A DNA stretch of 39,488 nt, from the sequence record PV833354.1. One strand, written 5' to 3'. Made by a program: the position numbers and the translations under genes. The notes beneath the pieces are model-generated. The model was not told the DNA's origin and made no database searches. It saw nothing but the letters and a program-made list of their open reading frames with translations. Each line of letters opens with the position of its first letter. The first letter of the stretch is position 1. The stretch comes from Escherichia phage vB_Eco_ZCEC02. Shown in pieces: positions 788 through 3,469 of the stretch.

Positions 788-3469
788 ATGAGCGTCATCT
801 CTATTGACAAGCACGACTTCTCTGATGTGTCGAACGCCATTGAGCCGTTTAACCTACTGGCTGACCACTACGGGCAAGACCTTGCAGTCAAACAGCTGCA
901 GCTTGAGCACGAGGCATACACTGAAGGCGAGCGACGTTTCATCAAGAACCTTGAGAGACAGACTGAGCGAGGGGAACTGGCAGACAATCAGGTAGCCAAG
1001 CCTCTTATGCAGACTCTTGTTCCTAAGATTGCGCAAGCCGTCAAGGAGTGGCACGAAGGTCCAGACGGGAAGCTGTCAACCTCTCGTCCGAGCGTAGCGT
1101 TCAACATGTTGAGCACTGAAGAGAAGGCCGTAAAGGTTCGCTCTTTGCGCATCTCCTGCGAGTCTGCTGCGGTTATCATACTGAAGGTCATACTCTCCAA
1201 GCTGGTCAAGCCTGAAGGGATACCGATTACACCGATGGCCTCAGCGATAGGTCGCACACTTGAGGACGAAATCCGCTTCGGTCGCATCCGTGACAAGGAG
1301 AAAGAGCACTTCAAGAAGGCGATAGCTGATAACCTGAATAAGCGGGCCGGGGCGTCCTACAAGAAAGCCTACATGCAAGCGGTCGAGGCATCCATGCTGG
1401 AGCAAGGCCAACTGGAAGATGCGTGGGGGACTTGGAGTCCTACAGAGGCTGTCCACGTTGGCATCAAGATGCTTGAGATTGTCATCCAGTCAACACAACT
1501 GGTAGAGCTTAAGCGGTACGGTGCTGGCAATGCAGCGGCTGACGTAGAGATGGTCCACCTGTCAGACTTCTGGGTCAAGAAGATGGCACAACGAGGATTC
1601 AGCCTTGCTGGCATCGCTCCAGTCTACCAGCCTTGCGTCGTTCCACCTAAGCCGTGGACTGGTGTAGTAGGGGGTGGGTACTGGGCCAAAGGACGCAGAC
1701 CACTACCACTGATTCGCTTAGGGTCTAAGTCTGCGGTGGCACGTTACGAAGACGTGTACATGCCTGAAGTCTATGACGCTGTGAATATCATCCAGAATAC
1801 ACCTTGGAAAGTAAACAAGAAGGTTCTGGACGTGGTGAACATGGTCGAGAAGCTGAACAACACGCCTATTGATGACATCCCTCAGATGGAACCGCTGAAG
1901 CCTGAGGACTATGCGGGTGAGACTGAAGAAGAACTCAAGGCATGGAAGAAGGCTGCTGCTGGTATCTATCGCCGCGAGAAGGCCAGACAGTCACGAAGAT
2001 TGTCACTGAGCTTTATCGTCAACCAAGCGAACAAGTTCTCTCAGTTCAAGGCCATCTGGTTCCCGTATAACATGGACTGGCGCGGTCGCGTCTACGCTGT
2101 GCCGATGTTCAACCCTCAGGGGAACGACATGCAAAAGGGTCTTCTGACTCTGGCAGTCGGTAAGCCTATTGGTGCTGATGGTTTCAAATGGCTGAAGGTC
2201 CACGGTGCAAACTGCGCGGGTGTCGATAAAGTCACCTTCGAGGAGCGTATCAAGTGGGTGGAAGATAACCACGACAACATCATGGCTGCTGCCAAGGCAC
2301 CGATGGATAGCATTGAGTGGTGGGGCAAGTTAGACTCTCCGTTCTGCTTCCTAGCGTTCTGCTTCGAGTATGCTGGCGTAATGCACCACGGCTTGTCTTA
2401 CTCCTGCTCGCTGCCGATAGCGTTCGATGGGTCCTGCTCTGGGATTCAGCACTTCAGCGCTATGCTTCGCGACCACATCGGTGGACATGCAGTAAACCTG
2501 ACGCCATCCGGTAAGGTCCAAGACATCTACCGCATCGTGTCTGACCGCATTGAGGAGGAGCTTAAAGTCCTGCTGATTAACGGTACTGACAACGAGAAGG
2601 TCACTCACGAGGATAAGAAAACTGGTGAGATTACCGAACGTATCAAGCTGGGGACACGAGAGCTGGCCCGTCAGTGGCTGACATACGGTATGTCACGCAA
2701 GGTCACTAAGCGTTCAGTCATGACTCTGGCATACGGGTCGAAAGAGTACGGATTCGCAGACCAAGTTTACGAGGACATCGTGATGCCAGCGATTGACTCA
2801 GGGTCTGGCGCTATGTTCACTGAACCAAGCCAAGCGTCTCGCTTCATGGCAAAGATGATTTGGGAAGCTGTGAGTGTGACAGTAGTTGCTGCGGTTGACG
2901 CGATGAAGTGGCTTCAAGGTGCTGCCAAGCTGCTGGCTGCTGAGGTGAAGGACAAGAAGACTGGAGAAATCCTGAAGCCTTGCCTTCCGGTACACTGGGT
3001 CACACCTGATGGGTTCCCGGTCTGGCAGGAGTACCGCAAGAAGGATACCACTCGTCTGAACCTGATGTTCTTAGGGTCATTCAATCTTCAGCCTACCGTC
3101 AACAGAGGTACGAAGAAAGAGCTGGACAAGCACAAGCAGGAGTCAGGCATTAGCCCTAACTTCGTCCACTCACAAGATGGTAGCCACCTGCGGAAGACTG
3201 TAGTCCACACTCACCGCAAGTATGGCGTGATGTCATTCGCAGTGATTCACGATAGCTTCGGGACCATCCCTGCTGACGCTGAGTATCTGTTCCGTGGTGT
3301 CCGTGAGACGATGGTCGAGACATACCGCGATAACGATGTGCTGCTTGACTTCTACGAGCAGTTTGAATACCAGCTTCATGAAAGCCAGCGCGACAAGTTG
3401 CCTGAGCTTCCGAAGAAAGGTAAACTGAATATCGAAGACATCTTGTCTTCAGACTTTGCATTCGCTTAA
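788..3469 (+). CDS. 1: T7-like single-subunit DNA-dependent RNA polymerase (893 aa)
   Basis: Near-colinear with T7 RNAP; motifs DGSCSGIQHFSAM and VIHDSFGT; specificity loop YRKKDTTRLNLMFLGSFNLQPT; C-terminal SSDFAFA (T7 ESDFAFA). Confidence 0.98.
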   Translation: MSVISIDKHDFSDVSNAIEPFNLLADHYGQDLAVKQLQLEHEAYTEGERRFIKNLERQTERGELADNQVAKPLMQTLVPKIAQAVKEWHEGPDGKLSTSRPSVAFNMLSTEEKAVKVRSLRISCESAAVIILKVILSKLVKPEGIPITPMASAIGRTLEDEIRFGRIRDKEKEHFKKAIADNLNKRAGASYKKAYMQAVEASMLEQGQLEDAWGTWSPTEAVHVGIKMLEIVIQSTQLVELKRYGAGNAAADVEMVHLSDFWVKKMAQRGFSLAGIAPVYQPCVVPPKPWTGVVGGGYWAKGRRPLPLIRLGSKSAVARYEDVYMPEVYDAVNIIQNTPWKVNKKVLDVVNMVEKLNNTPIDDIPQMEPLKPEDYAGETEEELKAWKKAAAGIYRREKARQSRRLSLSFIVNQANKFSQFKAIWFPYNMDWRGRVYAVPMFNPQGNDMQKGLLTLAVGKPIGADGFKWLKVHGANCAGVDKVTFEERIKWVEDNHDNIMAAAKAPMDSIEWWGKLDSPFCFLAFCFEYAGVMHHGLSYSCSLPIAFDGSCSGIQHFSAMLRDHIGGHAVNLTPSGKVQDIYRIVSDRIEEELKVLLINGTDNEKVTHEDKKTGEITERIKLGTRELARQWLTYGMSRKVTKRSVMTLAYGSKEYGFADQVYEDIVMPAIDSGSGAMFTEPSQASRFMAKMIWEAVSVTVVAAVDAMKWLQGAAKLLAAEVKDKKTGEILKPCLPVHWVTPDGFPVWQEYRKKDTTRLNLMFLGSFNLQPTVNRGTKKELDKHKQESGISPNFVHSQDGSHLRKTVVHTHRKYGVMSFAVIHDSFGTIPADAEYLFRGVRETMVETYRDNDVLLDFYEQFEYQLHESQRDKLPELPKKGKLNIEDILSSDFAFA

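Follow-up and report, generated by a model that had tools for sequence, protein, structure and literature searches.

The genome of Escherichia phage vB_Eco_ZCEC02 (PV833354.1), analysed over its whole length of 39,488 nucleotides and termed the window below, very probably encodes a K1F-type, T7-like RNA polymerase (RNAP) together with its cognate late promoters, with Asn766 and Ser764 in the promoter specificity loop of the enzyme retargeting recognition from the CGAC of T7 promoters to ACTA at positions -12 to -9. An earlier note on this DNA had proposed that the Asn, with the neighbouring change from Gln to Ser, may determine the altered promoter specificity; this proposal is supported by a published graft of the K1F loop into T7 RNAP, by a published coupling analysis and by covariation among related polymerases. 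The K1F-type pairing of loop and promoter has already been described and experimentally tested in substance, and the observation is thus correct, but not new.

Gene 1 RNA polymerase and its specificity loop

Gene 1 (788–3469, + strand) encodes a T7-like single-subunit RNAP of the K1F type, consisting of 893 amino acids, as indicated by its open reading frame, structural matches, Pfam matches and sequence identities. The product matches T7 RNAP structures from end to end (HMMER, 1279 bits) and belongs to the Pfam RNA_pol family (PF00940/PF14700; 356.9 bits, cut-off 22), with an RPOL_N domain (55.9 bits, cut-off 30.1). In MAFFT alignments, its amino-acid identity is 99.0% to the RNAP of K1F, 64% to those of T7 and T3, 59% to that of K11 and 32% to that of SP6. 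Many Kayfunavirus records, among them vB_EcoP-101136BS1, LM33_P1, EcoDS1 and ZG49, share 95–98% nucleotide identity with gene 1. T7 RNAP Asp537, Lys631, Tyr639, His811 and Asp812 have well-established catalytic roles. The equivalents of all five are kept with an offset of +10, as Asp547, Lys641, Tyr649, His821 and Asp822, which occupy invariant columns in comparison with T7, T3, K11 and SP6.

The specificity loop, a beta-hairpin with the sequence YRKKDTTRLNLMFLGSFNLQPT, comprises residues 749–770 (3032–3097, + strand) and aligns without gaps to T7 residues 739–760, each residue number in the window being that of T7 plus 10, as HMMER and MAFFT agree. The earlier note had placed the loop at 3032–3127: the peptide does start at 3032, but the loop ends at 3097, and 3127 reaches Asp780. 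The hairpin can be aligned to T7 739–770 with Arg kept at the 746 position, consistent with membership in the T7 RNAP family.

Within the loop, Arg756-Leu-Asn758 (3053–3061; Arg756, CGT, 3053–3055; Asn758, AAC, 3059–3061) corresponds to T7 Arg746 and Asn748, and Gln768 (CAG, 3089–3091) to T7 Gln758, so that all three of these residues are conserved, as had been noted before; the promoter base at -8 is T, as in T7. Asn766 (AAT, 3083–3085) takes the place of T7 Arg756, which contacts the template-strand G at -9 (PMC8874028; PMC5937735), and Ser764 (TCA, 3077–3079) takes that of T7 Gln754, two residues before. Both substitutions had been read correctly from the sequence: when the RNAP was aligned with those of T7, T3, K11 and SP6, no residue other than Asn766 was placed at the position equivalent to T7 Arg756.

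The residues at T7 positions 746, 748, 754, 756 and 758 are thus RNSNQ in the window, and Asn, Asn and Gln at 748, 756 and 758 assign the hairpin to the K1F subfamily. Over T7 739–762, the loop YRKKDTTRLNLMFLGSFNLQPTVN is the same in the window and in K1F. The T7 specificity class combines Arg at 756 with C at -9; the window has Asn766, and A at -9 in all 11 promoters. Among relatives, the codons vary synonymously (AAT or AAC for Asn766; TCA, TCC or TCG for Ser764). The persistence of both residues through these codon changes points to selection acting on the amino acids.

Promoter consensus

A search with the 18-mer CTAAACTATCACTATAGG (-16 to +2), allowing up to three mismatches, yields 11 sites, all on the + strand, compared with 0.02 expected by chance. 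The earlier note held that all 11 share one consensus. The number of sites and the invariance of -11 to -5 stand, whereas only five of the sites are exact and the remaining six carry one or two mismatches. The variation consists of T at -14 in three sites, and of G at -12, G at -3, and C at -4 with T at -3 in one site each. Fourteen positions do not vary among the 11 promoters: C at -16, T at -15, A at -13, C at -11, T at -10, A at -9, T at -8, C at -7, A at -6, C at -5, T at -2, A at -1, G at +1 and G at +2.

From -12 to -8, the sequence is ACTAT in 10 of the 11 sites and GCTAT in the other; this is the ACTAT given for the K1F graft, which assigns the promoters, like the hairpin, to the K1F subfamily. 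As a check on the extraction, T7, T3 and K11 promoters were recovered at the coordinates annotated in their records. The recovery of T7 promoters by the same procedure also bears out the numbering on which the contrast of ACTA with T7 CGAC at -12 to -9 had been based.

Published evidence on the K1F loop

In T7 RNAP, Arg756 contacts G at -9, Gln758 contacts A at -8, Arg746 contacts G at -7, and Asn748 contacts positions -10 and -11 (PMC8874028; PMC5937735). Phage RNAPs have been grouped by hairpin sequence, with one promoter "binding region" for each subfamily, and the K1F hairpin was put into T7 RNAP while -12 to -7 of the T7 promoter were swapped for the K1F consensus (Temme et al., 2012). 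With its cognate promoter, the resulting T7(K1F) chimera reaches 17-fold induction, and it is reported to be orthogonal to the T7, T3 and N4 pairs (Temme et al., 2012). It is tabulated as T7 R632S with 754S, 756N and 761V, having ACTAT as the cognate promoter (Zhu et al., 2025, Table 2); all constructs of Temme et al. carry the attenuating R632S. Two of the hairpin changes, 754S and 756N, are the same substitutions as those singled out by the earlier note, and I761V is additional. The swapped span is given as Q744–I761 (Temme et al., 2012), yet the later table shows no change at 744, where K1F has Thr (Zhu et al., 2025).

Direct-coupling analysis of 4750 RNAP–promoter pairs, in which "K1F" is a named network cluster, couples residue 748 to -11/-10, 756 to -10/-9, 758 to -8 and 746 to -7 (Zhu et al., 2025). 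Changing T7 RNAP only at 748, 756 and 758 gives at least one active pair for each cluster, that of K1F included, except K1E and SP6 (Zhu et al., 2025). From the alignment, the K1F triple of Asn, Asn and Gln in this scheme would correspond to T7 R756N. Native K1F RNAP and its promoter PK1F already serve as an orthogonal system, both for expression and as a mutator.

Covariation among related polymerases

RNAP loci with flanks of up to 10 kilobases were collected from viral contigs and reduced to 98 distinct RNAPs; the hairpin was read from MAFFT columns, and promoters were sought at each locus by a search anchored on the -7 to +2 core. One locus with heterogeneous "sites" (L096) and eight loci with fewer than three sites were left out. 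De novo promoter finding seeded with 9-mers worked for T7, T3, K11, SP6, K1F and the window, but was hijacked in many partial Kayfunavirus loci by arrays of ACCTACAGT. At loci L006–L025 (Kayfunavirus contigs; e.g., L012, L013 and L018), this is the top 9-mer, and it occurs in short tandem-like arrays composed, for example, of ACCTACAGTCCTACA and CCTACAGTCTAACCA units.

RNSNQ occurs in 20 distinct RNAPs, those of the window and K1F included, each of them accompanied by ACTATC; across these 20, -11, -10 and -9 are identical despite nucleotide divergence elsewhere. Arg756 occurs with C at -9 in seven of seven loop classes, versus one of six classes that lack this Arg (Fisher p = 0.005, the classes not being phylogenetically independent).

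The most informative natural contrast is provided by GW1-type relatives (L020 and L048; Ro103C3lw/Cronobacter GW1), which have the same backbone, an RNAP 88% identical to that of the window and an identical loop over 739–747. Over T7 residues 700–800, only eight substitutions separate the two types, including N748D, S754T and N756R, and the GW1-type promoters have ACCCTC, which is T3-like at -12 to -7, where the window has ACTATC. The change of residue 756 from Asn to Arg thereby accompanies that of -9 from A to C, and the change of 748 from Asn to Asp accompanies that of -10 from T to C. As read from these sequences, the contrast matches the predictions of the T7/T3 rules and is in effect a natural reciprocal of the mutation of Asn to Arg by which the earlier note proposed to examine the loop.

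Two further loci vary at other contact positions: L093 (Arg746, Ala758) uses ACCCAC, and L090 (Val746, Gln758) uses ACCCTG. This pair fits the contact map, the change at 746 going with -7 (C to G) and that at 758 with -8.

Mechanism and alternative explanations

As in T7, the beta-hairpin specificity loop would enter the major groove at -12 to -7. Arg756, Asn758 and Gln768 (T7 746, 748 and 758) are kept, as are the promoter bases at -7 and -8 that these residues are known to read. The contact between T7 Arg756 and the template-strand G at -9 would be replaced, Asn766, together with Ser764 two residues before it, retargeting CGAC to ACTA. Most likely, the bidentate bond of Arg with guanine at -9 is lost and new hydrogen bonds from Asn766 form at T-10/A-9; the reading of this step depends on neighbouring loop residues. 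By analogy with the K1F graft and native K1F RNAP, the polymerase and its promoters would form a matched pair, orthogonal for the most part to those of T7 and T3.

Several points weigh against so simple an assignment. Asn748 is unchanged although -11/-10 go from GA to CT, which indicates that the loop is not read one residue per base; as the graft of Temme et al. left 748 alone, the whole change to ACTA has to be explained by residues 754 and 756 together with their surroundings. K11-type enzymes (Lys748, Asn756, Lys758) use GG[A/G/T]CAC, with C at -9 despite Asn756, and KP32-type enzymes (Lys748, Asn756, Phe758) use GGTAGC. The K11 class thus shows that Asn756 alone does not dictate A at -9. 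The K1F loop was weak in a split T7 "sigma fragment" until M750R was added (Segall-Shapiro et al., 2014), and the Temme set has been judged to be of limited orthogonality (ratio of 8; Zhu et al., 2025). A test of N766R as the sole change in the native enzyme did not turn up in the literature, and a sequence search of the PDB gave no DNA-bound structure of a K1F-type loop.

Specificity might instead be set mainly outside the hairpin, by the divergent AT-rich loop with its insertion of ~11 amino acids or by other surface changes, Asn and Ser being passengers. The RNAP is only 64% identical to that of T7, its AT-rich loop equivalent lacks KRGKRP, the upstream promoter element also differs, and both the AT-rich loop and -16 of the GW1-type relatives are unlike those of the window. 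Against this, a hairpin graft in an otherwise T7 enzyme and promoter suffices for activity on ACTAT, and in the established T7 structure the AT-rich loop contacts -17 to -13, not -12 to -9. The AT-rich module is most likely additional to the hairpin rather than an alternative to it, and an origin of the ACTA specificity mainly outside the hairpin is very improbable. Asn766 might also do nothing but remove a contact, leaving an enzyme relaxed at -12 to -9 whose promoters keep ACTA through shared ancestry or some other cause. The side chain of Asn is not as long as that of Arg and might fail to reach the bases, and in the K11 class this Asn faces another -10/-9 step than in the KP32 class. A relaxed enzyme is, however, hard to reconcile with the invariance of -11, -10 and -9 in all 11 promoters of the window and across all 20 RNSNQ polymerases, or with the reported orthogonality of the T7(K1F) chimera, which implies discrimination against CGACT and ACCCT; we give this explanation very little credence. 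Retargeting by Asn766 with Ser764, in the context of the K1F loop, is the reading retained here.

The pair of hairpin and promoter is a textbook case of few residues reprogramming a single-subunit RNAP, of which the K1F version is already a part used in synthetic biology, and the window represents one more natural isolate with the K1F loop. The contrast within one clade at 88% RNAP identity (Asn/Ser with ACTATC versus Asp/Thr/Arg with ACCCTC) agrees with the published coupling rules and raises no new question.

AT-rich loop and upstream element

The equivalent of the AT-rich recognition loop, GKLSTSRPSVA (residues 94–104; 1067–1099, + strand), was located by alignment to T7. Unlike the T7 loop (AKRGKRPTA), it has no basic KRGKRP motif, and an insertion of ~11 amino acids comes after it. 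The upstream element at -17 to -13 is [A/C]CTAA in the window, with C at -16 and T at -15 invariant, versus TAATA in T7, where both of these positions are A. Loop and upstream element together make up a second difference from T7, beyond those pointed out in the earlier note. In the tabulated lineages, the GW1 type has the loop STRGKPQVA with TTAA at -16 to -13 (CT[A/T]A in the window), the L018 type has EDEKMRCKSKA with AAGGA, and the L035 type has SKGGHRPVA with CCATG.

These pairs of loop and upstream element across lineages suggest covariation. It is possible, though doubtful, that K1F-type enzymes carry a second specificity module, in which the AT-rich loop might have co-evolved with the reading of the upstream element. 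If so, the module would offer a second handle for orthogonality, varied neither in the hairpin graft (Temme et al., 2012) nor in the 748/756/758 and -12 to -8 variants (Zhu et al., 2025); the AT-rich loop region is not discussed in the latter study. The covariation of the AT-rich loop with -17 to -13 is the only part of this analysis with some possible novelty.

Promoter positions and genome context

The counterparts in K1F of the 11 promoters are all intergenic, lying just upstream of the genes named here or after gene 19. The first promoter in the window (697–714, + strand like all the others; one mismatch, T at -14) lies directly upstream of gene 1. Exact sites are found at 4018–4035 (K1F equivalent upstream of gene 1.3), 14888–14905 (before gene 6.5), 17727–17744 (before gene 9), 18715–18732 (before gene 10, encoding the capsid) and 31063–31080 (before gene 17, the tail-spike gene). 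The site with G at -12 is at 5674–5691 (K1F equivalent before gene 1.6), that with G at -3 at 6650–6667 (before gene 2.5), and that with C at -4 and T at -3 at 9178–9195 (before gene 4). The other two sites with T at -14 are at 23394–23411 (before gene 13) and at 36923–36940, after gene 19 in a phiOR-like position.

The promoter at 697–714 is ~75 base pairs (bp) upstream of the RNAP gene, and an equivalent site is present in K1F and at loci L014, L018, L020 and L048. For T7, T3 and K11, the promoter search finds none immediately before gene 1. Judging from its position, this promoter would let the polymerase transcribe its own gene, constituting positive feedback.

A degenerate twelfth promoter-like site, CTAAGATATGACTATAAG (14917–14934), is located 29 nucleotides downstream of the promoter at 14888–14905. 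Its mismatches fall at -12, -11, -7 and +1, and K1F has this site conserved in the corresponding place.

The window belongs to the genus Kayfunavirus (Studiervirinae; K1F/EcoDS1 group), being collinear with K1F over almost its entire length at 83–96% nucleotide identity. It represents the entire genome, in an order that is circularly permuted with respect to K1F. The left end of K1F corresponds to 37522–38780 (K1F 1–768 to 37522–38262) and the right end (K1F 39317–39704) to 37311–37698, which places the physical ends near 37520–37700, with a collapsed terminal repeat of ~180 bp. The tail-spike gene (31131–33986, + strand; 951 amino acids) encodes a T7-tail N-terminal domain, Tail_spike_N and a C-terminal Peptidase_S74 chaperone domain.

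Comparison with known systems

T7 RNAP (PDB 1cez and 1qln) has the fold and family in common with the gene 1 RNAP, and the hairpins are equal in length; within the hairpin, the window differs by Q754S and R756N, whereas Arg746, Asn748 and Gln758 are kept. The T7 class III promoter and the promoters of the window are the same from -8 to +2, and differ at -12 to -9 (CGAC in T7, ACTA in the window) and at -16 to -14 (AAT in T7, CT[A/T] in the window).

K1F is the nearer system, with a genome about 88–96% identical in nucleotides to the window. Its RNAP (gene 1.0, NC_007456) differs from that of the window by nine amino acids, none of them in the hairpin; the nearest is at T7 position 763, where the window has Arg773 and K1F has Lys. 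K1F promoters have ACTATC at -12 to -7, as in the window, and the anchored search finds all 12 sites of the window (its 11 promoters and the degenerate site) in the K1F genome too, at corresponding positions. The body of the K1F tail spike, in contrast, differs from that of the window: the central part of the window gene (about 31765–33963) does not match the endosialidase gene of K1F at the nucleotide level, and the receptor specificity therefore probably differs from that of K1F.

T3 RNAP, the paradigm being N748D, likewise illustrates that very few hairpin residues switch specificity, and its promoters have A at -12 and C at -11 in common with those of the window. The T3 switch lies at residue 748 and affects -11/-10, whereas that of the window would lie at 754 and 756 and affect -10/-9.

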